Assembly (NCBI GenBank): GCA_016217735.1
Contig: JACRGQ010000013.1
Coordinates: 10,428 to 74,427, forward strand
From: Nitrospinota bacterium
GTDB taxonomy: Bacteria; Nitrospinota_A; UBA7883; JACRGQ01
Reading direction: 5' to 3'
DNA: 64,000 nt
The notes beneath the pieces are model-generated. The model did not search any database. It had not been told where the DNA came from and saw only the letters and a list, made by a program, of their open reading frames with translations. Of the stretch, positions 12,301-41,592 are shown one piece after another. The position numbers and the translations under genes were made by a program. Numbering within the stretch: the stretch's first letter is position 1; each line of letters opens with the position of its first letter.

Positions 12301-12796
12301 GGAAGTGCGGTTATGCGGCGTGGTGAGCGCCCTGCGCACCCAATTGACCAAGAAAAAAGAGAAGATGGCCTACGTTACGCTGGAAGACATGAGCGGCAGC
12401 GCGACCATGCTCGTCTGGCCCAATACGCTGGCCGAGACGTTCCAGTACCTCGAATCGAACGAGGCGCTTTTCATCAAGGGGAAAATCGACCGTGACGAGA
12501 ACGATGTCAAGGTCATCGCGGACGAGATCATGCCGATAAAGGCCGCCAAGGAAAAATTCACCAATGCCATCCACCTTAATCTGCAAGTGGTGGGGTTGGA
12601 AGACACCGTGCTGAATGACCTCAAGCAGCTCGCCGCGCGCCACCGGGGGAACAGCAAGCTGGTGCTGCACTTCACCTTTCCGGATAGGAAACGGATGCAG
12701 GTGAACGCCTCCGACCGTTACAAGGTCGCAGCCAACGAATCGCTGCTGGCGGAATTTGAAAAGATCCTCGGCCCCTCCTCCGTCTACTGCTCCTAA
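9320..12796 (+). CDS. dnaE: DNA polymerase III alpha subunit
   Basis: 1158 aa; PHP domain start HLHLHSEYSLLDGA; polymerase core; OB-fold C-terminus. Confidence 0.97.
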   Translation: MKHEDFVHLHLHSEYSLLDGAIRFDNLLKKAEEFKMPAVAVTDHGNLFGAIEFYQKGMKSPVKPIVGCEIYITGGSRHDRGGVAGGDGENDPNTYHLILLIQNLKGYRNLCKIASAAYTEGFYYKPRIDKEYLAQHNEGLIALTACIKGEVPRKILKGDDAATEKALGFYKDVFGDRLYLELQNHGIPEQRKVNTALIEMSKKHSLKLVATNDCHYMEQSHWEAHDAMLCIGTGKMISDTNRMRYSAHEFYFKSPDEMRMLFKEVPEAITNTREVADRCNLDLKLGEYHLPAYTVPSEEPPQQFMESLVDHNLTLRLEESRKRGDVIGEEQEKEYRERMRMELAVIKKMNFAGYFLIVWDFVNYAKTQNIPVGPGRGSAAGSLVAWTLGITDLDPIKYGLLFERFLNPDRISMPDIDIDFCMNRRGEVIKYVTDKYGAKNVGQIITFGTMKARAVIRDVGRVMGVPYGEVDGIAKLVPEELKMTLAKAIEMEPKLADMEKKDPQVKKLLEIAKVLEGISRHASVHAAGVVIAPGDLTDFVPLYKTNKDEVVTQFTMKYIEELGLLKMDFLGLRTLTVIDWTVKSIRKGKAAAFDIRAIPMDDPATFKLLQDARTLGVFQLESSGMRDLMRKLKPEHFTDIIALVALFRPGPLNSGMADSFIHRRHGTEKVENIVPQLGEILKETHGVMVYQEQVMKIANELAGFTMAQADTLRKAMGKKDAKTMEKLRHDFVDGCKKNKIAEEKAATIFGQIQEFAEYAFNKSHSAAYALVSYQTAYLKTNYPEEYMASLLTSERDSTDKVVLYLNECRDLGIPVLPPDINESEVDFGALAGKIVFGLAAVKGVGVGAVSEIIRARQEGAPFASLTEFARRIDGKQVNRRVFEALIKCGAFDRLNKNRAALFDSLDSVTAEAAKDREETQMGQSNMFAAIETAADREKRLIRDLPDWPQAERLQHEKEALGFYITGHPMERYLQDQKRLATHQAGQLADTVNKQEVRLCGVVSALRTQLTKKKEKMAYVTLEDMSGSATMLVWPNTLAETFQYLESNEALFIKGKIDRDENDVKVIADEIMPIKAAKEKFTNAIHLNLQVVGLEDTVLNDLKQLAARHRGNSKLVLHFTFPDRKRMQVNASDRYKVAANESLLAEFEKILGPSSVYCS

Positions 12797-12911: not shown

Positions 12912-12956
12912 TAATCAGTAACATTATTTGTTGCTAGGCTTGGAAGGGGAAGATTG

Positions 12957-13388
12957 ATGTTTCAAACGGAAGTCAAGTTAGTTGACGTGTTTATTTCCTG
13001 CTTTCAGTCATGTTCTTCACTGAGGGCGACTCACAATATAGTCCGGGAGTTTGACTATGTTTCAGGGCGAACGGATATTTTATCTCTAAATACAGAAAAT
13101 GAAATAATCGCATTTGAGGCTAAGTTGACCAATTGGCGGAAAGCAATTCATCAAGCTTGGCGGAATACCAGCTTTGCCAATCAGGTGTATGTTGTGTTGC
13201 CTCGCACACGTTCTAGTGGTGCAATGAAAAACAAAGCTGAGTTTGATGAGCGTGGTGTGGGACTCTGTGTGGTTGATGATGGTGGTGGTGTGGAGGTTGT
13301 CATACCTTGTTCACGCAACAAACCATTAATTCCGTGGCTTAACCGCAAAGCGATGGACGCACTGGTTGGTAATGCCTGTTTCCACTAA
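12957..13388 (+). CDS. Small PD-(D/E)xK nuclease-fold-like protein (Hjc/restriction-endonuclease-like core)
   Basis: …GRTDILSLNTENEIIAFEAKLT… gives D…ExK spaced as in PD-(D/E)xK cores; about 143 aa; low GC; 23-nt overlap with the next gene. Confidence 0.5.
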   Translation: MFQTEVKLVDVFISCFQSCSSLRATHNIVREFDYVSGRTDILSLNTENEIIAFEAKLTNWRKAIHQAWRNTSFANQVYVVLPRTRSSGAMKNKAEFDERGVGLCVVDDGGGVEVVIPCSRNKPLIPWLNRKAMDALVGNACFH

Positions 13389-14229
13389 CACCCCCGCCCA
13401 ATTAGCAAAAAGTATTTGCGCCGATAAAGGCCTGACTTTCATTGGCGAGAAGGGGACGGGTGCTTTTAAGAATACGTTTCTCGTAAAAAAAAATAATGAT
13501 GAGCTGGCATTAAAGCTCATCATTCGCGGTGCAGATAATGCACGAATTGAACGTGAAATTGCGGCACTGAAGGTGTGTAATCACCCTAACATCTGTCGTT
13601 TGTTAGAAACGGGCATGATTAATGACGGTATGAAGCCAGTAATCTATCTGATTGAGGAGTTTCTGCCAGGAGGAACGCTAACGGATCATCTCTCAAACGG
13701 CTGTCTCCAACCGCCTGAAATTATTCAACTCGCGATTAGCCTCACTGAAGCTATTGCGCATTTAGCTGGACACCGTATTACTCACCGCGATATAAAGCCT
13801 GATAACATTATGTTTCGCGCTGATGGGATGCCGGTGCTTGTCGACCTCGGGATTGCTAGGCATCTTGAAGCAAGCTCTCTAACCATGACATTTCTTATGC
13901 ATGGGCCAGGCACACCTCTTTATGCTCCACCTGAGCAACTGTTGAATGACAAGCCCTTGATTGACTGGCGAAGCGATCAGTTTTCATTAGGCGTTACCCT
14001 GTCCTATGCCGCATTTGGCAGGCACCCTTTTGCCGAGAATGACTCTTTAGAGCGTACCGTGGAGCGTGTTGCCAACCGATTATCATCCTCGGCTGATTTT
14101 AAAAAATTAGCACAAGTGCATGGGCTTGATGCATTAATAAAAATGGTCGAACCTTGGCCTGTGAAACGTTTTGCACGGCCGGAAATATTGATGCAGGCAT
14201 GGCGCGATAGCGGAGGGGGGAGGACATGA
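13366..14229 (+). CDS. Hanks-type Ser/Thr protein kinase, kinase domain only
   Basis: Gly-loop GEKGTGAFK, Lys in LALKLI, HRDIKPDN catalytic loop, DLG (DFG variant), GTPLYAPPE activation segment; 287 aa. Confidence 0.85.
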   Translation: MVMPVSTNTPAQLAKSICADKGLTFIGEKGTGAFKNTFLVKKNNDELALKLIIRGADNARIEREIAALKVCNHPNICRLLETGMINDGMKPVIYLIEEFLPGGTLTDHLSNGCLQPPEIIQLAISLTEAIAHLAGHRITHRDIKPDNIMFRADGMPVLVDLGIARHLEASSLTMTFLMHGPGTPLYAPPEQLLNDKPLIDWRSDQFSLGVTLSYAAFGRHPFAENDSLERTVERVANRLSSSADFKKLAQVHGLDALIKMVEPWPVKRFARPEILMQAWRDSGGGRT

Positions 14230-15398
14230 GCACTTACCATCAGATGGGGCACAACTCAGAGGGTATGATCGTTGAGCCACAGTTGGGGCAATTTGCGGGC
14301 GCAATTCTTAGCCCGGTAAATTATTCGCTCGATAATACGGTTGCACAATGCGCTAGATTTCGAGACGTCAAGGCGGACATCGATATAATATTCGACCCAC
14401 AGCTTTACGTTCCCTCTGCTGACCGCGGTAAACTTCAGTATTGGCCTCATAAGCCCAACGATATTGATACTGCCGATCAGAGTTCTCTTGAATGGTGGAG
14501 AGTTGCAATAGCCAAGATCATTGATGTCTGCAAATTCTTCAAGCCCGCTGGGTTGTGTAGCCCGGCTTTTTTACCCAGAACTTTTGATGATGTGTACTAC
14601 AATTTGCTTGTTGATATAGGTGATGTTACATCGCAACAAATAGATGCTGATGAAGAGCTTAAATTAGGAACTCGTTCCTTTCTTACGGCACTGGTCAATT
14701 TAAATGACCTAGGAAGGAGTCAACGCTACTTGCAAGTCGGTTCAATTCTTTCGCGTTACAAAGGAGGGGATATTTATCTCGTATTTGTTGATGAAGAAAT
14801 TCCCCGCAACGAACGATCCGACTCAGGTGCCCTTGAAGGTGCGGCGCGACTGATACGGGTGTTAACTCAATCCGGGTTCCGCGTTACTGTTGGGTTTACT
14901 TCCTCAGAAATGGTGCTGTGGAAAGCTGCTGGTGCAACAAATGTTGCGACCGGAAAATATTTTAATCTGCGCCGTTTTACAAGGGAGCGCTGGGAGGACG
15001 AAGAATCAAGTGGCGGCAGAAATATCGGCTACTGGTTTGAACCCGCACTACTGGCATTTCTCAGAGAAGCCGACATACGCCGTTATAGGCAGGAATTTGC
15101 GATTGACCCGTCTCATGCTGCAAACCCATTTAGCAATTCAATTATTGGAAAATTAGATGCTGCCGAGCGGGAAGCGTGGGTAGCGGATTCATGGCGGCAA
15201 TTCTTGCATTGGTTTGCCCATTGCGAGACCGTCATTGGAAATGATTTTGCTAAATGTTCCGAGATGGTTTCGAATGCCGCTGACACATGGCATGCTGTAA
15301 AAGGTGCCAAGCTGATATTTGAAGAAGAGCGGAACAATGGAGATTGGGTCAGAGCTTGGAAGATTGTTCTTAATGAATTAGAGCGACGCCCCGATTAG
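14226..15398 (+). CDS. Hypothetical 390-aa protein, third gene of the kinase operon
   Basis: ATGA overlap with the kinase gene stop; low GC; no recognisable motifs. Confidence 0.6.
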   Translation: MSTYHQMGHNSEGMIVEPQLGQFAGAILSPVNYSLDNTVAQCARFRDVKADIDIIFDPQLYVPSADRGKLQYWPHKPNDIDTADQSSLEWWRVAIAKIIDVCKFFKPAGLCSPAFLPRTFDDVYYNLLVDIGDVTSQQIDADEELKLGTRSFLTALVNLNDLGRSQRYLQVGSILSRYKGGDIYLVFVDEEIPRNERSDSGALEGAARLIRVLTQSGFRVTVGFTSSEMVLWKAAGATNVATGKYFNLRRFTRERWEDEESSGGRNIGYWFEPALLAFLREADIRRYRQEFAIDPSHAANPFSNSIIGKLDAAEREAWVADSWRQFLHWFAHCETVIGNDFAKCSEMVSNAADTWHAVKGAKLIFEEERNNGDWVRAWKIVLNELERRPD

Positions 15399-15448
15399 AC
15401 CAAATTGTCATTTGCGAGGATCAGGGCTTGCTTTGTGGCATTTCATCA

Positions 15449-15715
15449 TCAAGCGGCACTTTCCCGCTCCACGTTCCAGCCGGGGAACAGGATCACGGCT
15501 GGATGGCATTTCAGCGCACGCGCAATCGTCTTTGCCCGCTCCACTCCCAGCTTTATCCTTCCGTTCTCGATGCCGGAAATGGTGGATTGCGGTATGCCGG
15601 TGGCCTTTGCCAAGTCGGCTTGGCTCATCTCCTGAAGCTCGCGCAATACGCGCACCGATTCCCCGGCGCTCATTTCCACGCGCGCTTTGGCCGGGGCAAA
15701 TCCTTTTTTCGCCAT
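15449..15715 (-). CDS. XRE-family HTH antitoxin (HigA-like)
   Basis: MSQADLAKATGIPQSTISGIENGR is an HTH_XRE signature; immediately downstream of a RelE-like toxin on the same strand. Confidence 0.75.
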   Translation of the reverse strand: MAKKGFAPAKARVEMSAGESVRVLRELQEMSQADLAKATGIPQSTISGIENGRIKLGVERAKTIARALKCHPAVILFPGWNVERESAA

Positions 15716-15719
15716 GACA

Positions 15720-15998
15720 TCACCTCCTGTAATCGTGGGGCGTAACCGTAACTACATACACCGACACTTCGGCTTCCTTTACTTCGTACACAACGCGGTA
15801 TTGCAGATTAAGCCTGCTGGAGCGGCAACCGCGCCACTCACCGCGTAACGCCTCATCGTGAAAGCCCTTAATGAGCCGCAAGCCATGAATACCTGAGTAG
15901 CGGACAACGTCTTTCCATTTTTCGTAACGTTTCAGCAGCTCATCGGGAAGCCGGTCAAGCTGTTTTTGCGCCTCGCGGCTTTCGTAAATACGCCACAT
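15720..15998 (-). CDS. RelE/ParE-superfamily toxin (HigB-like, toxin-first arrangement)
   Basis: 92 aa, C-terminal YRVVYEVKEAEVSVYVVTVTPHDY typical of RelE/ParE. Confidence 0.7.
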   Translation of the reverse strand: MWRIYESREAQKQLDRLPDELLKRYEKWKDVVRYSGIHGLRLIKGFHDEALRGEWRGCRSSRLNLQYRVVYEVKEAEVSVYVVTVTPHDYRR

Positions 15999-25373: not shown

Positions 25374-25482
25374 TCTTTTTTATCATGTGTCCGTGCGTCA
25401 TTTGACAGGATGGCGGTACGGGCATAGCATGGAGATGAAGGGGCGTATGGGCTTTCTCTCTAATAAAAAGGAGGGTTTTCAC

Positions 25483-26607
25483 ATGTCCGGGGTCAAAGAT
25501 CAGGTAAAACTTCTCACCAGCGTCGACCGGCGCGAATTCATGGGTCTATGCGCGCAAATCTCCGTCGTCCTCGGGCTTGGCAACGATATGGTGCCGAAGA
25601 TCGCGGAAGCCCTCGAAGCGGCCGCCCGCAAGCCCTCCATCATCTGGCTCCACTTCCAGGAGTGTACCGGCGACTCGGAGGCGTTTCTCCGCACCACCAG
25701 TCCGTCGGTGGCGGAACTGGTGCTTGACGTCCTTTCCATCGACTACCACGAAACGATCATGGCCGCATCGGGTGACCAGGCGGAGCAGAACCTCGCCAAG
25801 GCGATAAAAGAGAACAAGGGGAAATATCTTGTCGTCTGTGAAGGGGCGATTCCGCTGGCCACCCCGCCAGGTCCCGCCGGTCTCAAAGGAGGGTATCTCA
25901 CCATCGGCAACAAGACCGGCCTCCAAATTGCCGAAGAGGTTTGCCGCGACGCGGCCGCCGTCATCTGCGTGGGGAACTGCTCCAGCTACGGCGGCGTACA
26001 GGCCCAGCGCCCCAATCCCACCGGCGCGGTGGGGGTGGGGGAAGCGCTTGGAATCAAAACCGTCAACATCCCGGCCTGCCCCCACAACCCGGTCAACTCC
26101 ATCGCCACCATCGTGAATTACCTGCTCCTCGGCACCTTGCCGCCGACCGACCGCTTCGGCCGCCCGCTCTTCGCCTATGAAGAGCGGATACACGACCAGT
26201 GTACCCGCCGCTCGCACTTCGACGCGGGCCAGTTCGTGACCGAGTGGGGGAGCGAGGAGGCCAAGAAAGGCTTCTGCCTTTACAAGATGGGGTGCAAAGG
26301 GCCGCAGACCTATAACAACTGCAACAAGGCCCGCTATAACGACCACACCGGCTGGCCCATCGGCGCCGGGCATGGCTGCGTCGGTTGCTCCGAGCCGAAG
26401 TTCTGGGACACCATGTCCCCCTTCTACAAGCGGCTCGATAATATAGAGGTTCCCTTTGGCGGCGTGGAAGCCACCGCCGACAAGGTGGGGCTGGTCCTTA
26501 CCGGGGCGGCGGTCGCGGGGGCGGCGGTGCACGCGGTCTACACGTTCAACAAGAAAAAAGAGCATGAAGAGCGCATCATCGATCGGGAAAAGAAGGAGGG
26601 TAAGTAA
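25483..26607 (+). CDS. [NiFe] hydrogenase small subunit (group 1, Tat-exported)
   Basis: RBS aaggagg; twin-arginine motif DRREFMG; FeS-cluster cysteine pattern; C-terminal TM anchor. Confidence 0.92.
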   Translation: MSGVKDQVKLLTSVDRREFMGLCAQISVVLGLGNDMVPKIAEALEAAARKPSIIWLHFQECTGDSEAFLRTTSPSVAELVLDVLSIDYHETIMAASGDQAEQNLAKAIKENKGKYLVVCEGAIPLATPPGPAGLKGGYLTIGNKTGLQIAEEVCRDAAAVICVGNCSSYGGVQAQRPNPTGAVGVGEALGIKTVNIPACPHNPVNSIATIVNYLLLGTLPPTDRFGRPLFAYEERIHDQCTRRSHFDAGQFVTEWGSEEAKKGFCLYKMGCKGPQTYNNCNKARYNDHTGWPIGAGHGCVGCSEPKFWDTMSPFYKRLDNIEVPFGGVEATADKVGLVLTGAAVAGAAVHAVYTFNKKKEHEERIIDREKKEGK

Positions 26608-28266
26608 ATGGGAACCCGCGTAGTCATCGACCCGATCACCAGAATCGAAGGCCACCTCCGCATCGAAGTGGAAATTGAAAACGGCAAGGTCAAGGATGCG
26701 TGGAGCAGCGGCACCATGTTCCGCGGCTTCGAAATCTTCATGCGCGACCGCGATCCGCGCGACGCGTGGTACATTACCCAGCGCGTCTGCGGCGTCTGCA
26801 CCACCGTGCACGCGCTCACCTCGGTGCTCTGCGTGGAAAACGCCATCGGCATCGAGGTGCCGGATAACGCGCGCCTTATCCGCAACCTCATCATGGGAAG
26901 CCAGTATCTGCACGATCACATCGTCCACTTCTATCACCTCCACGCGCTGGATTGGGTGGACGTGGTCAACGCCCTGAAAGCCGACCCGAAGAAGACAGCC
27001 GAACTTGCCCACGCCATCAATCCGCATTCGCAACGGAGCGGGGAGGGGGACTTTCAAGCGGTGCAGGACAGGGTCAAGGCGTTTGTGAACGCGGGCCAGC
27101 TCGGCCCCTTTGATAACGCCTACTGGGGGCACCCGGCCTACAGGCTGCCGCCGGAAGCGGATCTGATGGCGGTGAGCCACTACCTCGACGCCCTGACGCT
27201 GCAGGCGAAGGCGGCCCGGATGCACGCCGTCTTCGGCGGAAAAAACCCGCACCCGCAAAGCTATGTGGTGGGCGGGATGACCTGCGTACAGGATCTGACC
27301 CCGGATCGGCTGGCCGAATTCATCTATCTCATGAAAGAGACTGTGGATTTCGCCCAGAACGTCTACATCCCCGACCTGCTGGCGGTGGCGCCCTTCTACA
27401 AGGAATGGGCCGGTATCGGCGGCGGGGTGGGGAACTACCTTGCCTACGGCATGCTGCCCGAAAACACCAAGGACGACCCGAACAACCTTTTCTTCCCGCG
27501 CGGCGTGGTGATGAACAGGGATTTGGGAAATCCCCAAAAGCTGGATCAGGCGAAGATCATGGAGCATGTGGCGCACTCTTTCTACGAAGGGGCTGCGCCG
27601 CGCCACCCCTCGGTGGGGGAAACCAAGCCGTACTTCACCGGCATCAACACCGCCGACAAGGACGGCAAGTACAGTTGGCTCAAGAGTCCGCGCTACGACG
27701 GCAAGGCGATGGAGGTCGGCCCGCTGGCCCGGCTGGTCGTCGGCTACGCCGCCGGCCACAAGCAGATCAAGGCGGCCGTGGACGGCACGCTGAAACAGCT
27801 CGGCCTTCCCGCCACGATCCTTTTCTCAACGCTTGGACGGACCGCCGCCCGCGGCATCGAGACCAAGGTGATGGCGGACAAGATGCAGCAGTGGGTGGAC
27901 GAACTGCTGGCGAATATCAAGCGGGGCGATCTCAGCACCTTCGCCAGCTATAAGATGCCCGACAGGGCGAGCGGCTTTGGCATGACCGAAGCGCCCCGCG
28001 GCGCCCTCGGCCACTGGATCGATATCAGGGGGGGGCTGATACACAACTACCAGCTTGTGGTGCCGACCACATGGAACGGTTCGCCGCGCGACGCCACGGG
28101 TCAGCGCGGGGCCTTCGAGGAAGCTCTCGTCGGCACGCCGGTGCATGATCCGAAGAAACCGCTGGAGATACTCCGCACCATCCATTCGTTCGATCCGTGC
28201 CTGGCCTGCTCGGTGCATGTGATAGACCCGAAGACCAACGAAGTGCATGTAACAAAGGCGGCGTAA
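26608..28266 (+). CDS. [NiFe] hydrogenase large subunit
   Basis: RIEGH, RVCGVCTTVH and C-terminal DPCLACSVH Ni-binding motifs, with a 15-aa C-terminal extension for protease processing. Confidence 0.95.
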   Translation: MGTRVVIDPITRIEGHLRIEVEIENGKVKDAWSSGTMFRGFEIFMRDRDPRDAWYITQRVCGVCTTVHALTSVLCVENAIGIEVPDNARLIRNLIMGSQYLHDHIVHFYHLHALDWVDVVNALKADPKKTAELAHAINPHSQRSGEGDFQAVQDRVKAFVNAGQLGPFDNAYWGHPAYRLPPEADLMAVSHYLDALTLQAKAARMHAVFGGKNPHPQSYVVGGMTCVQDLTPDRLAEFIYLMKETVDFAQNVYIPDLLAVAPFYKEWAGIGGGVGNYLAYGMLPENTKDDPNNLFFPRGVVMNRDLGNPQKLDQAKIMEHVAHSFYEGAAPRHPSVGETKPYFTGINTADKDGKYSWLKSPRYDGKAMEVGPLARLVVGYAAGHKQIKAAVDGTLKQLGLPATILFSTLGRTAARGIETKVMADKMQQWVDELLANIKRGDLSTFASYKMPDRASGFGMTEAPRGALGHWIDIRGGLIHNYQLVVPTTWNGSPRDATGQRGAFEEALVGTPVHDPKKPLEILRTIHSFDPCLACSVHVIDPKTNEVHVTKAA

Positions 28267-28291
28267 CCGCCAAAGCCGATACGGGGGCCAT

Positions 28292-28990
28292 ATGGTCATT
28301 TTGCTGGAAATGGTAAAGGTAAAGACCGCCGGTGTGCGCGCGTTGCACTGGGTGATCTTCTTAGCCACCGTCTCGCTCGTGCTGACCGGCCTGTATATAG
28401 CCGATCCGTTCTGGCTTTCCGGCACGGGCGAGGCGTACCAAACGTTCGTCATGGCGAAGATACGGTTGATACACTTCCTCTCGGCAATCGCGCTGGATGT
28501 GGCCTTCCTCGTGCGGCTCTACATCGCGTTTTTCTCGCTCTTCCATACCGACTGGCGCGAAGTGCTCCCGACCCCCGGCAACCTGAAAGAGGCATGGAAG
28601 TCATTCCGCTTCTACTGGACGCTGGAAGGGGAGCAGAAGGACTACCGCTGGATCGACCCGTTCGACGGGATCACCTTCCACCTGTTGCACCTTATTCTGA
28701 TACTCCAACTGTTCACCGGATTCGCGCTCTACGTCTCCGGCATCGAACTCACCGCCGGCATCTATGGCATCTGGGCCAAAACCCTGCATTTTGCAACCGA
28801 CTGGACCCTCGTGGTCTTTGGCGGGCTGCCGGGAGTGCGCCTGATGCACCATTTCACGCTCTGGCTGGTGGTGAGCGGCGCGTTTTTGCACATCTACCAT
28901 CAGGTCTGGAAAACCATAAAACTGCAACGTGCCGACATCAGCGCCATCGTCAACGGCTACAAGCTGATGGCCGTGAAGCGTGGGAAATAA
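28292..28990 (+). CDS. Ni/Fe-hydrogenase b-type cytochrome subunit
   Basis: About 230-aa four-TM protein with conserved His residues, directly after the large subunit. Confidence 0.8.
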   Translation: MVILLEMVKVKTAGVRALHWVIFLATVSLVLTGLYIADPFWLSGTGEAYQTFVMAKIRLIHFLSAIALDVAFLVRLYIAFFSLFHTDWREVLPTPGNLKEAWKSFRFYWTLEGEQKDYRWIDPFDGITFHLLHLILILQLFTGFALYVSGIELTAGIYGIWAKTLHFATDWTLVVFGGLPGVRLMHHFTLWLVVSGAFLHIYHQVWKTIKLQRADISAIVNGYKLMAVKRGK

Positions 28991-29495
28991 CATCGCAACC
29001 CCCATCACGGTGCTCGGCATCGGCAACATCCTGATGCGGGACGATGGCCTCGGCATACGGGCGCTGGAAGCCCTGCGGCGGGATTTTTCGTTTCCGGGCA
29101 ATGTAACGCTCATCGACGGCGGCACCACCATCTTTCACAACATGGAGATATTCACCGCCGCGGAAAAAATGATCGTGTTCGACGCCGTGAAGCTGGACGG
29201 CCCGCCGGGAACCGTCTACGCCTTCAACTCGGATGAATACCGGGTGAAGCTCCCGCGCAAAGCCACCTCGCACGACGTGGGTGTGCTCAATACCCTTTCG
29301 ATAATGGAACTGGTGGGCAAAAAGCCGCCGGAAGTGATTATCATCGGCGTGCAGCCGAAGGAATACGACACATGGAGCGAGGAACTTACCCCCGAAGTGG
29401 CCGCCGCCATTCCCGAAATGGTCCGCCGCGCCGTCGAACAGCTTGCGAAGTGGGGGATGAATATCATGCAAAACAAGGGTAAATTTGCATTGTAA
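28980..29495 (+). CDS. Hydrogenase maturation endopeptidase (HyaD/HupD family)
   Basis: VLGIGNILMRDDGLGIRALEAL is a typical HycI/HyaD start; 171 aa. Confidence 0.85.
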   Translation: MGNNIATPITVLGIGNILMRDDGLGIRALEALRRDFSFPGNVTLIDGGTTIFHNMEIFTAAEKMIVFDAVKLDGPPGTVYAFNSDEYRVKLPRKATSHDVGVLNTLSIMELVGKKPPEVIIIGVQPKEYDTWSEELTPEVAAAIPEMVRRAVEQLAKWGMNIMQNKGKFAL

Positions 29496-29510
29496 AATTA
29501 TTGCGGTATA

Positions 29511-29717
29511 ATGAAAATTATGGAAAAGGATGTTCTTCAAAAAGAAAACGTTGAGTGTTTGGAAACTCTTTATTTTGAGATTATGAATCCCCAAAACCCA
29601 TTTTTTAACAAGGAAATCGCTCCATCTCCTCCATCGCTGTCGCTTAACCAACCTTCATTGCTTACAACAGTTGAAAGCATTACAACTTATAGCGCTTACG
29701 AAAATCAGCACACCTAA
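29511..29717 (+). CDS. Small ORF (68 aa) translationally coupled (TAATG) to the Clp-fold protease gene
   Basis: Low-GC; its stop overlaps the downstream ATG by 1 nt; a TATAAT box overlaps its first ATG. Confidence 0.3.
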   Translation: MKIMEKDVLQKENVECLETLYFEIMNPQNPFFNKEIAPSPPSLSLNQPSLLTTVESITTYSAYENQHT

Positions 29718-30643
29718 TGCCCAACTGGAATGATGTCCTCTCAGAGATCGGGAAATATAAACAAGAATTCATACAAAACGCAAACCAATCTGTAGATATT
29801 GTCCGAAGAAAATATTTAAAGCTTCTTTTCGAAGAAACCGACCGAAACATCATCGCTTACTATTCAGGATTTCTTTCAAAGCCCGGCATTGAACAATCGC
29901 AAATATCTGATGAAGATAAGAATGCATTTATGATGGCTATACATAAACTTGACCGGTCGAAAGGGCTGGACCTCATTATTCACAGCGAGGGTGGAAGCAT
30001 AGCCGCCACGGAATCTATTGTTGACTATCTTCATCGGATGTTTGGAAGTGACATCAGAGCTATCGTCCCTCAAATTGCCATGTCGGCTGGTACAATGCTG
30101 GCTTGTTCTTGCAAAGAAATCATTATGGCAAAGCACTCCAACATCGGCCCAATTGATCCTTGGTTACGTGGCGTTCCGGCCCAAGGAGTAAAGGGGGAAT
30201 TTAAACGTGCATTTGAGGAAATAAAAGCAGACCCGGCAAAGCTTGCCGTTTGGCAACCGATATTGATGAAATACCAGCCTACATTTCTCAGCCAATGTGA
30301 AAATGCAATTGATTGGGCCCACACTTTCGTTAAAAATCAGCTAACTGAAATTATGTTTAGCGGAAAGGATGATGCCGTTTTACTTGCCACCAATGTTGTT
30401 ACTGCGCTTAGTAATTATGATGAAAACAAATCTCATGGCCGACATATTCATTTTGATGAGGCATTTGCGATTGGGCTAAATGTTAAGCTGATTGAAAATG
30501 ATTGCAGTGATAAATACCAAGACCTTTTATTGACGGTACATCACTGTTTTATGCACAGTCTTACCAACACGCCGTCATATAAAATGATCGAAAATCATAA
30601 CGGCGTGGCCTTCGTTAAGCAACTTGTAACAGGACAATCTTAG
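29717..30643 (+). CDS. ClpP/crotonase-fold serine protease (SDH-family / S49-like), cytoplasmic or secreted
   Basis: LIIHSEGGSIAATESIVDYL and AMSAGTMLA match the ClpP-fold oxyanion and Ser blocks; 308 aa; low GC. Confidence 0.65.
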   Translation: MPNWNDVLSEIGKYKQEFIQNANQSVDIVRRKYLKLLFEETDRNIIAYYSGFLSKPGIEQSQISDEDKNAFMMAIHKLDRSKGLDLIIHSEGGSIAATESIVDYLHRMFGSDIRAIVPQIAMSAGTMLACSCKEIIMAKHSNIGPIDPWLRGVPAQGVKGEFKRAFEEIKADPAKLAVWQPILMKYQPTFLSQCENAIDWAHTFVKNQLTEIMFSGKDDAVLLATNVVTALSNYDENKSHGRHIHFDEAFAIGLNVKLIENDCSDKYQDLLLTVHHCFMHSLTNTPSYKMIENHNGVAFVKQLVTGQS

Positions 30644-30662
30644 GAAGTTGTTGGGCTAAAAT

Positions 30663-31067
30663 CTATCCTTTCGGGACGGGGCGGGGAGTGCCGTGTTCGT
30701 CCACGGCGACGTAGACCACTTTCGCCTCCGTCACCTTCACGCATTTGCCGTTGTTTACCCGCTCGGCGTAGACGGTTATATCCATCGTGATGGAGGTGGT
30801 GCCGATGGCGATGCAGTCGGCGTAGCAACTGACGAGATCGCCCACATAGACCGGCTTTTTGAAGACGACCTCTTTCACCGCCACGGTGGCGACCCGGCCT
30901 TGCGCGATTCGCATCGCGTCAATCGAGCCGGCGATGTCGACCTGCCCCAATATCCAGCCGCCGAAGATGTCCCCCTTGAAGTTGGTGTCCTTCGGCATGG
31001 CCGCCACGCGCAGCGCCGGCTGTTTCCCGGGCGGGAGTTCGCAATAATCCTCTTTGAGGTTGTTCAT
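30663..31067 (-). CDS. Acyl-CoA thioesterase (hotdog fold, YciA-like)
   Basis: AMPKDTNFKGDIFGGWILGQVD is a conserved YciA motif. Confidence 0.75.
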   Translation of the reverse strand: MNNLKEDYCELPPGKQPALRVAAMPKDTNFKGDIFGGWILGQVDIAGSIDAMRIAQGRVATVAVKEVVFKKPVYVGDLVSCYADCIAIGTTSITMDITVYAERVNNGKCVKVTEAKVVYVAVDEHGTPRPVPKG

Positions 31068-31137
31068 ATTTCCCAAGTATATCATTATCACCGTTCCTAA
31101 AAACCGATAGCGCCAACCATTCCCTTCCACGGGGCCG

Positions 31138-31995
31138 TCAGTAAAGCCGGGCCATCAGTCCTTTGATCTTTTCCATGTCGACGTCGCGCTCCACCAGCGG
31201 TTTTGCATCCCCGATGACGGTGGCCACATATCCGGGCCGCGGGTTTTTATAGATGACCCCCAGCGGTATTTTTTCATCCCACTCGAACGCTTTCGCCAGC
31301 GCCTTCATCCGGTCCGCGGGATCGTGTTCCGGTCCCAGCCGGTAGGCGCGTTGCTGGTACCACTGGTAGGTGTTCACCTTGTTAAAGGAGACGCAGGGCT
31401 GCAACACGTCGATCAGCGCGAAGCCGCCGCACTCCATCGCCTGCCCGATGAGTTCCGCCGTGAGGTCGATTTCTTTGGAAAAACTTCGGGCCACGAACGG
31501 CGCGCCGAGCGCGATGGCCACCGCCAGCGGATTGAACGGCGTAAGTATCACCCCGTCCGGTTGCAGCTTCGTTTTCATCCCTTTGTCCGAAGTGGGGGAG
31601 GCCTGTCCCTTGGTGAGGCCGTACACCTGATTGTTATGCACGATGAGCGTCATCTCGGTGTTGCGGCGTATGGCGTGGATGAAATGGTTCCCCCCTTCGC
31701 CGTACACGTCGCCGTCGCCGCTGGTGACGATGACCGTCAGCCGGTGGTTGGCCGTTTTCGCGCCGAAGGCGGGCGGAAGCGCCCTGCCGTGCAGCCCGTT
31801 AAAGCCGTTGGTCTTGAGATAGTGCGGCAGCTTCGCCGCCTGCCCGATGCCGGATACGGTGAGCACCTCTTCCGGTTTTTTGCCGGCGCGCGTCAGCGCC
31901 TTTTCCACCGAGCTAAGGATGGCGAAATCGCCGCAGCCGGGGCACCACGCTTTTTCCCCTTCATAGCGAAACGCGTTTGAATTTTCCATTGCCAT
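31138..31995 (-). CDS. 2-oxoacid:ferredoxin oxidoreductase beta subunit (TPP-binding)
   Basis: CPGCGDF…GDGD TPP-binding pattern; 285 aa. Confidence 0.85.
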   Translation of the reverse strand: MAMENSNAFRYEGEKAWCPGCGDFAILSSVEKALTRAGKKPEEVLTVSGIGQAAKLPHYLKTNGFNGLHGRALPPAFGAKTANHRLTVIVTSGDGDVYGEGGNHFIHAIRRNTEMTLIVHNNQVYGLTKGQASPTSDKGMKTKLQPDGVILTPFNPLAVAIALGAPFVARSFSKEIDLTAELIGQAMECGGFALIDVLQPCVSFNKVNTYQWYQQRAYRLGPEHDPADRMKALAKAFEWDEKIPLGVIYKNPRPGYVATVIGDAKPLVERDVDMEKIKGLMARLY

Positions 31996-33694
31996 GCACC
32001 TCTTTCAGCCTGTCTATGATAAAGCGGGCGGTAATGGGCCGTCCGTCATACCGCGTTACTGGCACGCCGGTTCGTATCCCGGTTTCGCGCGCCAGCAGCC
32101 GCGCCAGTTGTCCGGTAAAGTTTCCCTCCACCGTGTGAAGCGTTTCCTTCTTTGCCAGCAGAGCGCGGGCTTCGCCGGACGGGAACGGCGCCAGCCGGTT
32201 GAAGTGCGCCATGCCCGCTTTAATGCCAGCCCCATTCAGCGCGTCCACCGCCTCGCGCGCCGCGCCATAGGCGGTTCCCCAGCAGGCGAGCGTGATAAGC
32301 GGCTTTTTGGCGCCGTACCATGTCGGCGCGCCCGGCTCTTTGGCCATCCCTTTCAGCTTGCGGAACCGCTTTTCCACCATCGCGCGGACGATGCCGGGGT
32401 CTTCGGTGATGTGGCCGTCCTCCTCATGCAAGTGGCTGTCGTACATCACCCGTGCGCCCGGTGTGCCATACGGCAGACGGGGTGAAACGCCGTTGGGCGT
32501 GAGGCTGTACCGTTTGTAGGGATCGGGAAGTTTCGCGGGATCGGCCAGGTAATTTTTAAAGCGCACCCTTGCGGCATTGAACCGGTCAAGCGTCACATAG
32601 CTGTCCACCAACTGTTGATCTCCCAGCAGAAATACCGGCACCTGATACTTGTCCGCCAGATTCATGGCATGGATGGCGGTGTAAAACGCCTCTTCCGCCG
32701 TGCCGGGGGCGAAGACGAAACGGGGGAATTCACCGTGGCCGATGTTCAGCGCAAGGTCGAGATCCTCCTGCCCCGTGCGTGTGGGCAGTCCCGTGGCGGG
32801 GCCGGGACGCATGATGTTGGCGATCACCACCGGCGTTTCGGCTATTCCGGCGAGGCTGATTCCCTCCGCCATGAGATCCAGCCCGCCACCCGATGTGGTA
32901 ACGGCGGTACGCACCCCCGCGGCGGAAGCTCCCAGCGCCATGTTCACGGCGGCGATCTCGTCTTCGGCCTGCTCGGAAAGAATGCCCAGCTCCGCCGCGT
33001 TGGCGGTAACGTAGTTGAAGATGGAGGTGGAGGGGGACATCGGATACGCGCTGACGAAGCGGAGTCCGCCGGCCATCATGCCGAGGCCGATGGCTTGGGC
33101 TCCGTTTATCAGCATGCGCGTTTTTTGCTTTACCGGTTGAAGCGGGCGCGTGGTCTCGGCATAGTACCGCGCAATATGGCGGTGGCCCGCTTGCGCGGCG
33201 GCAATATTTTTTTCAACGGCCTCGTTCCCCTTTTTGCCGAAATGTTCCCGCAGCAGCGCATCCACCCCCGCCATGCCGATTTCGAGGAGGGCGGCGATGG
33301 CCCCCAAGGCCACGGCGTTGGCATACACCGGGTTTCCCGCCTCATTGGCGAAGCGGTTCATCGGCACTCCGGCGAACCGGACGCCGTTGACGGTGGGCGG
33401 TGTGTGGTCGCTGTCATGCAGCACGATGCCCCCGGCGGTCAGCTCGCGCAGGTGTTCGTCCATGCTCCGGCGGTCAAGCGCGGCGAGGATGTCCGCCGCG
33501 GGCTGGGGCGCGAAGACCGGGTCGGCGTCGATGCATATCTGGATGAAGTTATGGCCGCCCCGGACGCGCGACATGTAGTCCTGCGTGGCCAGCAGGCGGT
33601 AGCCCGCGCGGGCGAGCAGCTTCAGCAACAGATCGGATACGGTGACGAGTCCCTGTCCGGCCATGCCGCCGAGCGTGAGCGTTGTCTGTGGCAT
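31961..33694 (-). CDS. 2-oxoacid:ferredoxin oxidoreductase alpha subunit (fused gamma/alpha, KorA-like)
   Basis: About 577 aa with an N-terminal gamma-like domain and a pyruvate-flavodoxin oxidoreductase core; overlaps the beta-subunit gene. Confidence 0.85.
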   Translation of the reverse strand: MPQTTLTLGGMAGQGLVTVSDLLLKLLARAGYRLLATQDYMSRVRGGHNFIQICIDADPVFAPQPAADILAALDRRSMDEHLRELTAGGIVLHDSDHTPPTVNGVRFAGVPMNRFANEAGNPVYANAVALGAIAALLEIGMAGVDALLREHFGKKGNEAVEKNIAAAQAGHRHIARYYAETTRPLQPVKQKTRMLINGAQAIGLGMMAGGLRFVSAYPMSPSTSIFNYVTANAAELGILSEQAEDEIAAVNMALGASAAGVRTAVTTSGGGLDLMAEGISLAGIAETPVVIANIMRPGPATGLPTRTGQEDLDLALNIGHGEFPRFVFAPGTAEEAFYTAIHAMNLADKYQVPVFLLGDQQLVDSYVTLDRFNAARVRFKNYLADPAKLPDPYKRYSLTPNGVSPRLPYGTPGARVMYDSHLHEEDGHITEDPGIVRAMVEKRFRKLKGMAKEPGAPTWYGAKKPLITLACWGTAYGAAREAVDALNGAGIKAGMAHFNRLAPFPSGEARALLAKKETLHTVEGNFTGQLARLLARETGIRTGVPVTRYDGRPITARFIIDRLKEVHGNGKFKRVSL

Positions 33695-33782
33695 AATCGC
33701 CTCCCGATAAAGGAATCCATGACAAATGCCGCCGAACACAACGCGGCCGCCCCGCGCCGTGGCGGGGCCGGCCGGAACGTTG

Positions 33783-34385
33783 TTATTTCAACAGGCGGTT
33801 TTCCACGGTCTTCCAGTTGATGTTCGTGAAGAAATCGTCGATGTAGCGCCCCCGTTCGGTCGGTTTCAGGTAGGCGGTCCACGCGTGTTCCCACACGTCC
33901 ATCACGAGGAGAGGCGCGAAGCCGGCGGGATGCCCTTCTTCATGCAGGCCTATCCAGTGGTTGCTCAAAAAGCCGGTATCGGGATCCTTGTACAGGATTG
34001 CCCAGCCGACGCCGCGCATTGCCGCGATCTTGCGGAATTCGATTTCCCAGTTTTCCCAGCAACCGAAGGCTTCATCAAAGGCGGCCTTCACCGCGGAGCC
34101 GGGTTCGCCGCGGCCGCCGAGGTTATCGAAATACAGCTCGTGCAATCTCATGCCGTTGTATTCGAAGCCGAGGCGGCGGACAAGCTCGCAGAACTCCGTC
34201 GAGCCGGCCTCGCCTTTTTCCACGATGCCGGCGATCTTTTCGCGCAGCAGGTTCGTGTTCGTCACGTAGCCGTTGTAGAGTTTCAGGTGCTCGTCGATCT
34301 CGGTTTGCGTTATCCCGCGCAGCTTGTCAAGCCCCGGAAATGTTTTGGGTGCATATTTGGTCAGTGTTTCTAATAGCGGAGACAT
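33783..34385 (-). CDS. Fe/Mn superoxide dismutase
   Basis: 200 aa with the conserved DVWEHAWTAYL C-terminal motif. Confidence 0.9.
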   Translation of the reverse strand: MSPLLETLTKYAPKTFPGLDKLRGITQTEIDEHLKLYNGYVTNTNLLREKIAGIVEKGEAGSTEFCELVRRLGFEYNGMRLHELYFDNLGGRGEPGSAVKAAFDEAFGCWENWEIEFRKIAAMRGVGWAILYKDPDTGFLSNHWIGLHEEGHPAGFAPLLVMDVWEHAWTAYLKPTERGRYIDDFFTNINWKTVENRLLK

Positions 34386-34677
34386 AAAATTCCTCCAGCG
34401 GCGGCGCGCGGAATGCGCGCGCCGTCAAAAGGGGTTTTGTTCTTGAGTGGTTCCGTTTTGGAAAGCGGCCGGCCGTGAGCCGTCCGCCGTATTTGCGCAA
34501 AAAATGCCCCCCTGCCCGATTTGCGAAATTGATTCGCCCGAAACTCCCGCTGCCATTGGGCAGGAGCATATACTTCTCCTTCTTTACTTGCCTCCATTTT
34601 ACACCCGTTTCGTGAAATGGTGTGGGAGCAGGGGGATTTGATCCGGCGTTTGGCGCCCCATAAAACGGGAAATATGG

Positions 34678-34695
34678 GATAATAAATGCATTATC
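34678..34695. promoter_or_regulatory. Fur/PerR-family-like inverted repeat GATAAT-N6-ATTATC about 60 nt upstream of rubrerythrin
   Basis: Perfect 6-6-6 palindrome in the divergent sod/rubrerythrin intergenic region. Confidence 0.35.
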
Positions 34696-34755
34696 AGGCG
34701 CGCGAAGAGGCGCGCCCAAACTGCATCAACGATATCTACCTGAAAGGAGCATCCA

Positions 34756-40393: not shown

Positions 40394-40684
40394 ATGACCA
40401 TGGAAACATTGCTCAAAGAGAAGCGGCGGGAAATCCTGCGCATTGCCCGTGAGTATGGTGCGAGCAGAATCCGTATATTTGGTTCCGTCGCGCGGGGTGA
40501 AGACCGGCCCGATAGCGATGTCGATTTTCTTGTCGAAATGGAAGATGGGCGCAGCCTTCTCGACATCGGCGGCATGCAAATGGACCTTCAAGACCTGTTG
40601 GGAAGGAAGGTGGATGTTGTTACCGAAAAAGGGATGCGCCCTCGGATAAAAGACAGGGTATCAAAAGAAGCCGTTTCCCTATGA
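40394..40684 (+). CDS. MntA-type nucleotidyltransferase antitoxin
   Basis: IFGSVARGEDRPDSDVDFLVE is the NTase GS/DxD motif; 4-nt overlap with the downstream HEPN gene. Confidence 0.8.
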   Translation: MTMETLLKEKRREILRIAREYGASRIRIFGSVARGEDRPDSDVDFLVEMEDGRSLLDIGGMQMDLQDLLGRKVDVVTEKGMRPRIKDRVSKEAVSL

Positions 40685-41013
40685 GGGATGACCGCCAGCG
40701 CATTCTGGATATTCTGGAAGCGATAGAGAAGATCGAAAAGCATACCTGTGGCGGCAAAACGGCATTTGAAGAAGACGAACTGATCCAAACATGGGTTGTC
40801 TACCACCTTCAGATCATCGGCGAAGCGGCCAGCAAGATTTCCGACGCCGGCAAAGAAAAATATTCCGCGGTTCCCTGGCGCAAAATAATCGGCATGAGGA
40901 ATACCCTTGTTCACGGATATTTTGGGGTGGATGCCGATGTCGTGTGGGCGGCTGTGAAGAATGACTTGCCAGCCCTCAAGGAATCGCTTGGGAATCCCCC
41001 ATTACCGCTATAG
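40681..41013 (+). CDS. HepT-type HEPN toxin (DUF86)
   Basis: RNTLVHGY is the HEPN Rx4-6H motif; 110 aa. Confidence 0.8.
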   Translation: MRDDRQRILDILEAIEKIEKHTCGGKTAFEEDELIQTWVVYHLQIIGEAASKISDAGKEKYSAVPWRKIIGMRNTLVHGYFGVDADVVWAAVKNDLPALKESLGNPPLPL

Positions 41014-41592
41014 TTTCCTGATATATGAAGAAGTATCGGCCTTGCCCGTGCTTGTAACCACACCATTAAAGTTGTGAAGTTGTGAATTTGCTTTTTCTGA
41101 ATAGGTGGTTAACTCTTTTTTGAGATCTTCATAAAGCCGTTTTGCTTCCTCATTGTTATACGTTGCACACACCTTGTCACAGAATTCAATAAGGTGTTTA
41201 TTAAGTACTGGGGTTATTTTAGAATATTTCTTGAGCCAGTCAATATTTCCCTCAAAGCGCGATTCCGTGAGGTGGACAAGCCTTTGACTAGAATTTGTGT
41301 AAAAATCACCAAATCGTGTTTCTATTTTCCAGTTTAAATCAAACTTGCCTAACCAAACGTCATTTTCAAAATGCCTCTTGTCCATGGTGAAGAATTCAAC
41401 TAAGCATCGGCAATGGGCTATGTAGCTGTCCAATGTGGCCTGCCACTCAACTCTTTCCCTATCACTTCCACTTCTCTTTTTCCCAAAGGAACTGTCTGTA
41501 AGAAGCAACAAGGTCTCGTTCATCATCCACGCTTCAAATTGGATGTGTTTGTGGCGATCTATAAGGTAGTTTCCATCTTTATTGCTATTCAT
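41008..41592 (-). CDS. AT-rich orphan hypothetical protein (194 aa), likely horizontally acquired
   Basis: Markedly lower GC than its flanks; convergent with the HepT/MntA pair; no recognised motif. Confidence 0.5.
   Translation of the reverse strand: MNSNKDGNYLIDRHKHIQFEAWMMNETLLLLTDSSFGKKRSGSDRERVEWQATLDSYIAHCRCLVEFFTMDKRHFENDVWLGKFDLNWKIETRFGDFYTNSSQRLVHLTESRFEGNIDWLKKYSKITPVLNKHLIEFCDKVCATYNNEEAKRLYEDLKKELTTYSEKANSQLHNFNGVVTSTGKADTSSYIRKL

Follow-up and report, generated by a model that had tools for sequence, protein, structure and literature searches.

A ClpP-fold protease of the SDH type and its small partner protein form a two-gene cassette inserted behind a hydrogenase operon of Nitrospinota

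Immune and addiction systems built on proteases are under active study, with Lit, CalpL, Craspase and the CHAT- or SAVED-linked proteases as examples. One system of this kind, FS_HP_SDH_sah, is said to be encoded on phage-inducible chromosomal islands (PICIs) and to act against phage, and it reportedly gave protection in the experiments of Fillol-Salom et al. (Cell 2022). PMC13532340 names this DefenseFinder system, a hypothetical protein together with an SDH protease, and has DefenseFinder flagging SDH_sah genes in oral phage contigs. Here we describe a pair of genes from a Nitrospinota bacterium, located in a 64,000-nucleotide stretch of contig JACRGQ010000013.1 (assembly GCA_016217735.1). 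This whole stretch is called the window, and coordinates refer to it unless another locus is named. The pair encodes a small protein and a ClpP-fold serine protease, and lies in an AT-rich cassette behind a hydrogenase operon. We are confident that the region from about 29458 to 30665 is a horizontally acquired, self-contained two-gene module, which is mobile elsewhere. Its features are:

29458..30665, strand not applicable: inserted AT-rich cassette of ~1.2 kb, with ~41 bp of the ancestral hycI/thioesterase junction replaced
29511..29717, + strand: small partner protein of 68 aa (from ATG 29511) or 65 aa (from ATG 29520)
29717..30643, + strand: ClpP-fold serine protease of the SDH type, 308 aa, predicted cytoplasmic, its start overlapping the stop of the small open reading frame (TAATG)

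The insertion is documented by an empty site. By tracing homologues of the hydrogenase maturation protease HycI to their contigs, we found two contigs (L118 and L119) with ~89% nucleotide identity to the window across the hydrogenase genes. In both, the same thioesterase gene follows 7 nt after hycI, and homology to the window breaks at 29457 and picks up again at 30667. The left border of the insert, at ~29458, lies 38 nt ahead of the hycI stop. Since the insert begins before this stop, the last 12 codons of hycI and the stop codon itself are insert-derived; the product ends in ...AKWGSVPAAGQAV in the relative and in ...AKWGMNIMQNKGKFAL in the window. At the right junction stands the stop codon of the thioesterase gene, 19 nt from that of the protease. 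The host genes at the two junctions are:

28980-29495, + strand: hycI, hydrogenase maturation protease (Pfam HycI over the whole open reading frame, 1.3e-31)
29458..29495, + strand: insert-derived C-terminal tail and stop codon of hycI, delimited by comparison with the empty-site relative
30663..31130, - strand: convergent host gene for a 4HBT-family thioesterase (Pfam 4HBT, 2e-13)

Base composition sets the cassette apart from its surroundings. The mean GC content of the window is 59%; values of 0.57-0.64 before the cassette fall to 0.38 (29501-30000) and 0.43 (30001-30500), and the insert as a whole has 0.36-0.41. At third codon positions (GC3) the small open reading frame (ORF) has 0.35 and the protease gene 0.40, compared with 0.75-0.83 in four hydrogenase genes; the overall GC content of host genes is ~0.6. 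A first-pass annotation of this DNA, made from the letters alone, had called a sharp GC drop right after the hycI stop, followed by a 68-aa ORF overlapping a 308-aa ORF at TAATG, and had asked for a check of GC content and codon usage. Both ORFs and their overlap are present and the drop is real, but it starts inside hycI, at ~29458.

A second Nitrospinales metagenome-assembled genome (MAG; locus L009) has the identical left junction and the same cassette, with a protease that is 93% identical at the protein level. Since junction and cassette are common to both genomes, we conclude that they go back to a single insertion event, older than the split of the two. The L009 locus aligns to window positions 25400-30648 at 87% nucleotide identity. 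To the right of its cassette (L009 6927-7795) it has the convergent cytochrome-b gene of a second hydrogenase-like operon in place of the thioesterase gene. Similarity stops 5 nt past the protease stop, so that a rearrangement breakpoint coincides with the right end of the cassette. Comparison of these two copies gave a ratio of nonsynonymous to synonymous substitution rates (dN/dS) of ~0.05 in the protease gene and ~0.15 in the small ORF; dS, at 0.71-0.97 in the cassette genes, is comparable to the 0.48-0.56 of the neighbouring hydrogenase genes. Both genes have thus been under purifying selection since the insertion.

At the ends of the window cassette we looked for terminal repeats and a target duplication and obtained only short, chance-level repeats. 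Scans for tRNA genes and Rfam families found nothing in the entire window, and a terminator scan gave nothing convincing at the cassette. The window copy keeps only a putative promoter and the two genes.

The two genes are linked far beyond Nitrospinota. We ran a profile hidden Markov model of the small protein over 103 distinct loci. Among the loci with a protease that shares 55% identity or more with that of the window (83 distinct ones), 74 have a homologue immediately upstream of the protease gene and three more are borderline; the intergenic gap is -8 to about +30 nt. This answers the check on co-occurrence proposed in the first-pass annotation. In 83/83 loci the pair is AT-richer than its flanks, with a mean difference of 0.107. 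The protease family comprises more than 7,676 clusters at 90% identity, and at least 503 protease loci were counted in 185,579 species-representative genomes. Homologues occur in Nitrospinota, Nitrospirota, Chloroflexota, Planctomycetota, Acidobacteriota, Verrucomicrobiota, Gemmatimonadota, several proteobacterial classes and others, at 55-68% identity to the window protein, and this level of identity across many phyla argues for horizontal spread. The chromosomal contexts are mutually unrelated (his operon, CorA/GGDEF, RibD/FolC, glycosyltransferase, polyphosphate kinase, IS-rich patches, where IS denotes an insertion sequence), and in them the pair stands by itself, as two genes inserted between housekeeping genes. 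Such solitary inserts are common for toxin-antitoxin cassettes. No third gene is conserved, the downstream ORFs of four loci (L003, L007, L009 and L037) being mutually unrelated.

The cassette is therefore not a chance feature of this genome, as a close relative has the empty site and the pair recurs in more than 80 unrelated contexts. The suggestion in the first-pass annotation that the element had been acquired horizontally is borne out by the empty site and by the AT-richness at every locus. Neither of the two observations that it had named as contrary to its view applies, namely a place among the housekeeping SppA peptidases of the lineage (the SppA model is far from reached, as given below) and a GC content typical of the genome, of which the low values here are atypical.

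The vehicles of the pair, which that annotation had not anticipated, could be identified in other genomes. The Acidobacteriota chromosome OY970265.1 contains two copies of a 2,884-bp element, 99.97% identical to each other (L037 4428-7311 and L038 4428-7311), with ORFs for an IS1-family transposase (Pfam DDE_Tnp_IS1, 9e-8), the small protein, the protease and an 84-aa product. The element ends in a 27-bp inverted repeat, GGTAGTGGGTAGTTATCTTTTCCACAG, and is flanked by 8-bp target duplications, GATCTACG and CATTCGTT. Near-identical copies with terminal inverted repeats and target duplications are evidence of recent transposition. Transposases 50-92% identical to that of OY970265.1 adjoin the pair in ~20 loci from several phyla; roughly one locus in five has the pair as passenger of an IS1-family transposon. 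Inverted repeats of the type GGTAGTG..TCAGTTTGAA flank transposase and pair in seven further loci, over 2.4-2.95 kb. The pair is a recurrent passenger of a transporter insertion sequence (tIS), a concept set out in PMC9330008. A separate arrangement was seen at L007 4866-9003 (OY762209.1, Syntrophorhabdaceae). There two IS1-like transposase genes, with 82% identity between them, flank the pair and an unrelated 252-aa ORF in a layout like that of a composite transposon, within an IS-rich patch beside a SocA_Panacea-domain gene.

Temperate phages and prophages are the other carriers. The protease gene lies after the late regulator and before the lysis genes in a Mu-like Shewanella phage, beside HicAB in Porphyromonas (oral) phages, after the tail genes in Gordonia phage BeeGee, next to the integrase gene in a P. 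aeruginosa element and in the nin region of a Klebsiella prophage. In E. coli, a relative 25% identical to the window protease and annotated in RefSeq as 'SDH family Clp fold serine proteinase' is encoded directly after the cI repressor gene, at the site that rexAB occupies in lambda. These prophage sites are moron or immunity positions, typical of exclusion or defence genes. The E. coli locus is a plasmid-borne lambdoid prophage (L109 4230-6071; NZ_CP130669.1), in which the protease gene and then a 56-aa ORF follow the cI-type repressor gene; this pair of genes was counted in 20 of 5,426 complete E. coli genomes. The Klebsiella pair, used as a DNA query against E. coli genomes, gave no match. 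Proteases less than 50% identical to that of the window also adjoin a small ORF in the Klebsiella, P. aeruginosa and E. coli prophages and in the Shewanella and Porphyromonas phages.

We then assigned the protease to a family. It passes the gathering cut-off of Pfam PF01972 (SDH_protease) with 62.2 bits against 31.3 (E 5.4e-17), the match being confined to aa 63-159, that is, to profile positions 73-168 of 286. The sole full-length match is PHROG 11747 (1.6e-88), a family annotated as of unknown function. The NCBIfam equivalog NF047768 (Clp_like_SDH) is matched below its cut-off, with 73.5 bits against 250 over residues 62-158 only. These comparisons place the protease in a distinct subfamily of the SDH type, that of PHROG 11747, with a conserved partner family of its own. 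Two other assignments were tried and rejected: SppA of family S49 (TIGR00706, 25.6 bits against 155.45; SohB, E 0.067; no hydrophobic segment visible in the sequence) and ClpP of family S14 (equivalog, 18 bits against 309; the ClpP histidine position is not invariant). The first-pass annotation had proposed a ClpP/S49 fold without obvious signal peptide or transmembrane segment, based on the blocks IHSEGGSIAATE and AMSAGTMLA. Both blocks are present, neither a signal peptide nor a membrane segment is apparent, and the ClpP fold stands; the type is SDH (PF01972, PHROG 11747) and not S49/SppA.

An AlphaFold2 model of the protease built from 37 homologues reached a pLDDT of 91.3. In a structure search of BFVD the best matches were giant-virus models named 'Serine dehydrogenase proteinase' (E 1e-11, template modelling (TM) score 0.55-0.58). 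SDH proteinases gave TM scores of 0.5-0.58, compared with 0.3-0.4 for phage prohead proteases; phage ClpP-like proteases scored lower as well. Two parts of the model have no counterpart in ClpP, namely the long helix at the N-terminus and the C-terminal half (~150 aa), which is helical. Twelve positions are invariant down to 25% identity, namely G92, G93, S123, S141, G144, P145, D147, P148, H240, R242, D262 and H275. The residue that occupies the ClpP histidine position, His140, is swapped for Q or A in some members. The catalytic order in PF01972 is Ser, Asp, His, unlike the Ser-His-Asp of ClpP, and the conservation pattern probably fits such a Ser-Asp-His arrangement, made up of Ser123, Asp147 and either His240 or His275. 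The protease is predicted to be cytoplasmic and is probably active. The codons concerned are:

30083..30085, + strand: Ser123, predicted nucleophile in the motif A-M-S-A-G-T, aligned with the ClpP active-site serine and invariant in 37 close and 9 distant homologues
30155..30157, + strand: Asp147, candidate triad acid in G-P-I-D-P, invariant down to 25% identity
30434..30436, + strand: His240, candidate triad base in H-x-R, invariant in distant homologues
30539-30541, + strand: His275, alternative candidate triad base, invariant in distant homologues

The small ORF has no match in Pfam, NCBIfam, PHROG or PADLOC. In each of three unrelated genomes that we inspected first, a 58-59-aa ORF lies 3-8 nt upstream of the protease gene and terminates in ...SLEQP....V.(S/T)V.TY(G/S)AYE.PI. 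The window protein has an N-terminal helix with LExxYxxhF and then a disordered stretch, SL(E/N)QPS..x..V.S(I/V)TTY(G/S)AYE; AlphaFold2 places the helix at residues 6-25 and leaves the remainder without structure. Across the family, an often basic N-terminus is followed by the LExxYxxhF helix, from which a variable linker leads to the conserved motif at the C-terminal end. Many homologues share the fixed last residues ...AYE(E/D/K)P(I/V), and this end differs among clades, for example in ...GIDVTLCPTPNA and ...LLIHKGN. An exhaustive search of 1.84 billion representative proteins returned 411 small-protein clusters and no fusion; every cluster is a stand-alone protein (50-175 aa) that carries the motif at its C-terminus. 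A 396-aa protease homologue (P0096) was considered as a natural fusion and rejected, as it merely has a Pro/Gln-rich C-terminal extension. Together, these comparisons indicate that the small ORF encodes a true, unannotated protein family and a dedicated, co-evolving partner of the protease. The first-pass annotation had offered substrate, inhibitor or membrane tether as its role; a tether is unlikely, since the protein is for the most part disordered and lacks a hydrophobic segment.

Of the two possible starts of the small ORF, ATG 29520 (65 aa) is probably the conserved one, because the L009 orthologue and the NCBI annotation (P0135) begin there. Upstream of it we noted one further feature:

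29484..29512, + strand: putative sigma-70-like promoter TTTGCA-17 nt-TATAAT, with 10/12 consensus positions, inside the insert

The promoter-like hexamers and their spacing are conserved in L009. As the -10 hexamer ends 7 nt ahead of ATG 29520, the arrangement suggests that the mRNA of the small ORF is leaderless or near-leaderless.

A working model of the pair can be put forward on these grounds. The promoter of the cassette would drive a bicistronic, translationally coupled message for the small protein and the protease. The small protein, made together with the protease, would bind it through the conserved C-terminal motif and hold it latent, acting as a pseudo-substrate or an inhibitor. 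Once the partner was depleted or displaced, by phage infection or by loss of the module, the protease would be freed to cleave cellular or phage proteins, and growth would stop. On balance, we lean towards a role of this kind, either selfish addiction in the manner of a toxin-antitoxin system or abortive (anti-phage) infection, because of the carriage by insertion sequences and prophages, the solitary AT-rich inserts, the phage positions typical of genes expressed in lysogens and the HicAB neighbour in one phage. Inhibition of the protease by the small protein is a more tentative proposal. It is doubtful, if conceivable, that the pair stands for a new class of mobile addiction or immunity modules, in which an SDH protease would be gated by a disordered partner of ~60 aa through SLEQPS...V.TVTTYGAYE.PI, and which would have spread across more than 10 phyla as cargo of one IS1-family lineage.

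Several points weigh against an addiction or abortive-infection role. Our search of the literature on SDH-type proteases found no functional study or mechanism, and for this subfamily nothing that points to toxicity, neutralisation or phage resistance. PADLOC gave no meaningful match for the protease, the partner or five homologues, and most chromosomal copies lie outside recognisable defence islands. The window copy itself has no transposase match and no sequence resembling an IS1 terminal inverted repeat. The small ORFs beside proteases of less than 50% identity show no demonstrable homology to the small-protein family of the window; when the family profile was compared with the ORFs from Klebsiella, P. 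aeruginosa and a Porphyromonas phage, the probabilities were 0.3-8%. By name and description the window pair is no more than a candidate relative of FS_HP_SDH_sah, and the inhibitor role of the small protein is drawn by analogy.

Other explanations of the pair were weighed against the same evidence. The small protein may be a precursor, which the protease would cut in the SLEQP / TTYGAYE region. The active peptide set free in this way could be a signal, a toxin or a product resembling a ribosomally synthesised and post-translationally modified peptide (RiPP); the pair would then be a maturation system. The location of the conserved motif in the disordered C-terminal part, and the fixed residues at the extreme C-terminus in many homologues, would suit a cleaved precursor, but that end varies by clade, neither protein has a secretion signal, and a modification enzyme, exporter or immunity gene alongside the pair is lacking, as is any conserved third gene. 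We consider a precursor unlikely. A shade less likely still is a pair that serves its carrier, the IS1 element or the prophage, by degrading a host repressor, a restriction or defence protein or an inhibitor of transposition, and so assists counter-defence or establishment. This would account for its presence inside IS1-family elements in ~20 loci and in temperate phages, yet about three quarters of the loci, the window included, have no transposase or phage genes nearby, and both genes are nevertheless under strong purifying selection. The prophage sites after cI and beside HicAB are also those of genes expressed in the lysogen.

Two further explanations are effectively excluded by the empty site, the model scores and the contexts. 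According to one, the cassette is what remains of a prophage head module, with a ClpP-like prohead protease and a fragment of the scaffold; the first-pass annotation had mentioned phage prohead proteases as one form of orphan Clp-fold protease. Weak partial matches to the head maturation models NF045542 and phrog_53 (4.6e-11) point that way, but the former, at 35.1 bits, is far under its cut-off of 120, PHROG 11747 is the family matched over the full length, and the best viral structures are SDH proteinases and not prohead proteases. No capsid, portal or terminase genes adjoin the pair here or in more than 80 loci, and the insert is a precise 1.2-kb unit. We regard a head-module remnant as very improbable. 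According to the other, the protease is a housekeeping enzyme of the lineage, SppA-like or a factor in hydrogenase maturation, and the low GC content is incidental. The gene does stand directly after the hydrogenase operon in two Nitrospinales genomes; the close relative and three other hydrogenase operons are without it, however, the SppA and ClpP models are missed by far, and the context differs in every other genome, which makes a housekeeping enzyme the most remote of these explanations. The cassette is unrelated to hydrogenase function, though it has rewritten the last 12 codons of hycI.

The comparison of the window with L118 showed that these closely related genomes differ by a second indel. 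An additional ~3.6 kb of normal GC content lies at 31087-34696 of the window, between the thioesterase gene and the next common gene, with L118 positions 2869/2912 corresponding to 31086/34697. Elsewhere in the window, a second AT-rich island (12950-15720, GC content 0.45-0.49) directly follows the gene for DNA polymerase III alpha (9320-12796). It holds four ORFs on the same strand, for 144 aa, a Ser/Thr protein kinase of 287 aa (13366-14229; Pfam Pkinase, 1.5e-35), 390 aa and 101 aa, the other three without a Pfam match. This island may be another acquired cassette. At 40394-41592, the gene for a HepT-like ribonuclease toxin (40681-41013; Pfam, 8.9e-29) overlaps the end of a 96-aa ORF ahead of it (40394-40684) and is followed by a 194-aa ORF on the - strand, which has no Pfam match and lies in the lowest-GC patch of the window (0.39 at 41001-41500). 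This looks like a toxin-antitoxin locus beside another foreign gene.

The pair matters for what it offers to experiment. The protease family is large (more than 7,600 clusters at 90% identity) and very well conserved, with 60-68% identity across phyla. With a dedicated unannotated partner, a defined mobile vehicle and a clean pair of filled and empty sites, it makes a compact, testable two-gene system. It also shows that candidate genes for defence or addiction can reach environmental phyla, among them Nitrospinota, Acidobacteriota, Planctomycetota and Chloroflexota, as cargo of insertion sequences.

Among ClpP-fold enzymes, the window protease shares with ClpP, SppA and NfeD (1510-N) the ClpP/crotonase-like core and the nucleophilic serine in an equivalent turn. 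It differs from this group in its extra N-terminal helix, its helical C-terminal half and its want of membrane segments, and from ClpP in having no ClpX or ClpA partner in its context and no conserved histidine at the ClpP position. The NfeD protease cleaves its operon partner. B. subtilis SppA, according to PDB 4kwb, binds C-termini in its active site. These two cases suggest, by analogy only, that ClpP-fold enzymes can be partner-directed. Closer in type are the members of NF047768/PF01972, such as WP_021518647.1 of an E. coli lambdoid prophage, which have the same fold and the pattern of S123, D147, H240 and H275 in common with the window protease. The E. coli gene comes right after cI and is likewise paired with a small ORF; the identity of the proteases is only 25%, however, and the small ORF lies downstream and is not detectably related.

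The arrangement of the pair resembles that of type II toxin-antitoxin systems, in that a small first gene overlaps a larger second one (TAATG) and a promoter-like site lies upstream. Like these systems and the cargo of tIS elements, the pair occurs as a solitary AT-rich insert between housekeeping genes and also on insertion sequences and prophages. Neither protein has a known toxin or antitoxin domain, in which the pair differs from them, and a protease would be an unusual toxin for such a system. The likeness to FS_HP_SDH_sah, compared by description only, lies in an unannotated hypothetical protein with a PF01972-type (formerly 'SDH_sah') protease and in carriage by mobile elements; homologues of the window protease are also found in oral phages, those of Porphyromonas. 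In contrast to that system, the window protease belongs to the PHROG 11747 subfamily with its own conserved partner family, and instead of PICIs it is IS1-family transposons and prophages that carry the pair, which also occurs as solitary inserts in chromosomes. An SDH protease accompanied by a small hypothetical protein on mobile elements is thus already known, and what is apparently undescribed, as far as can be told, is this protease subfamily, its conserved partner and its IS1 vehicle.

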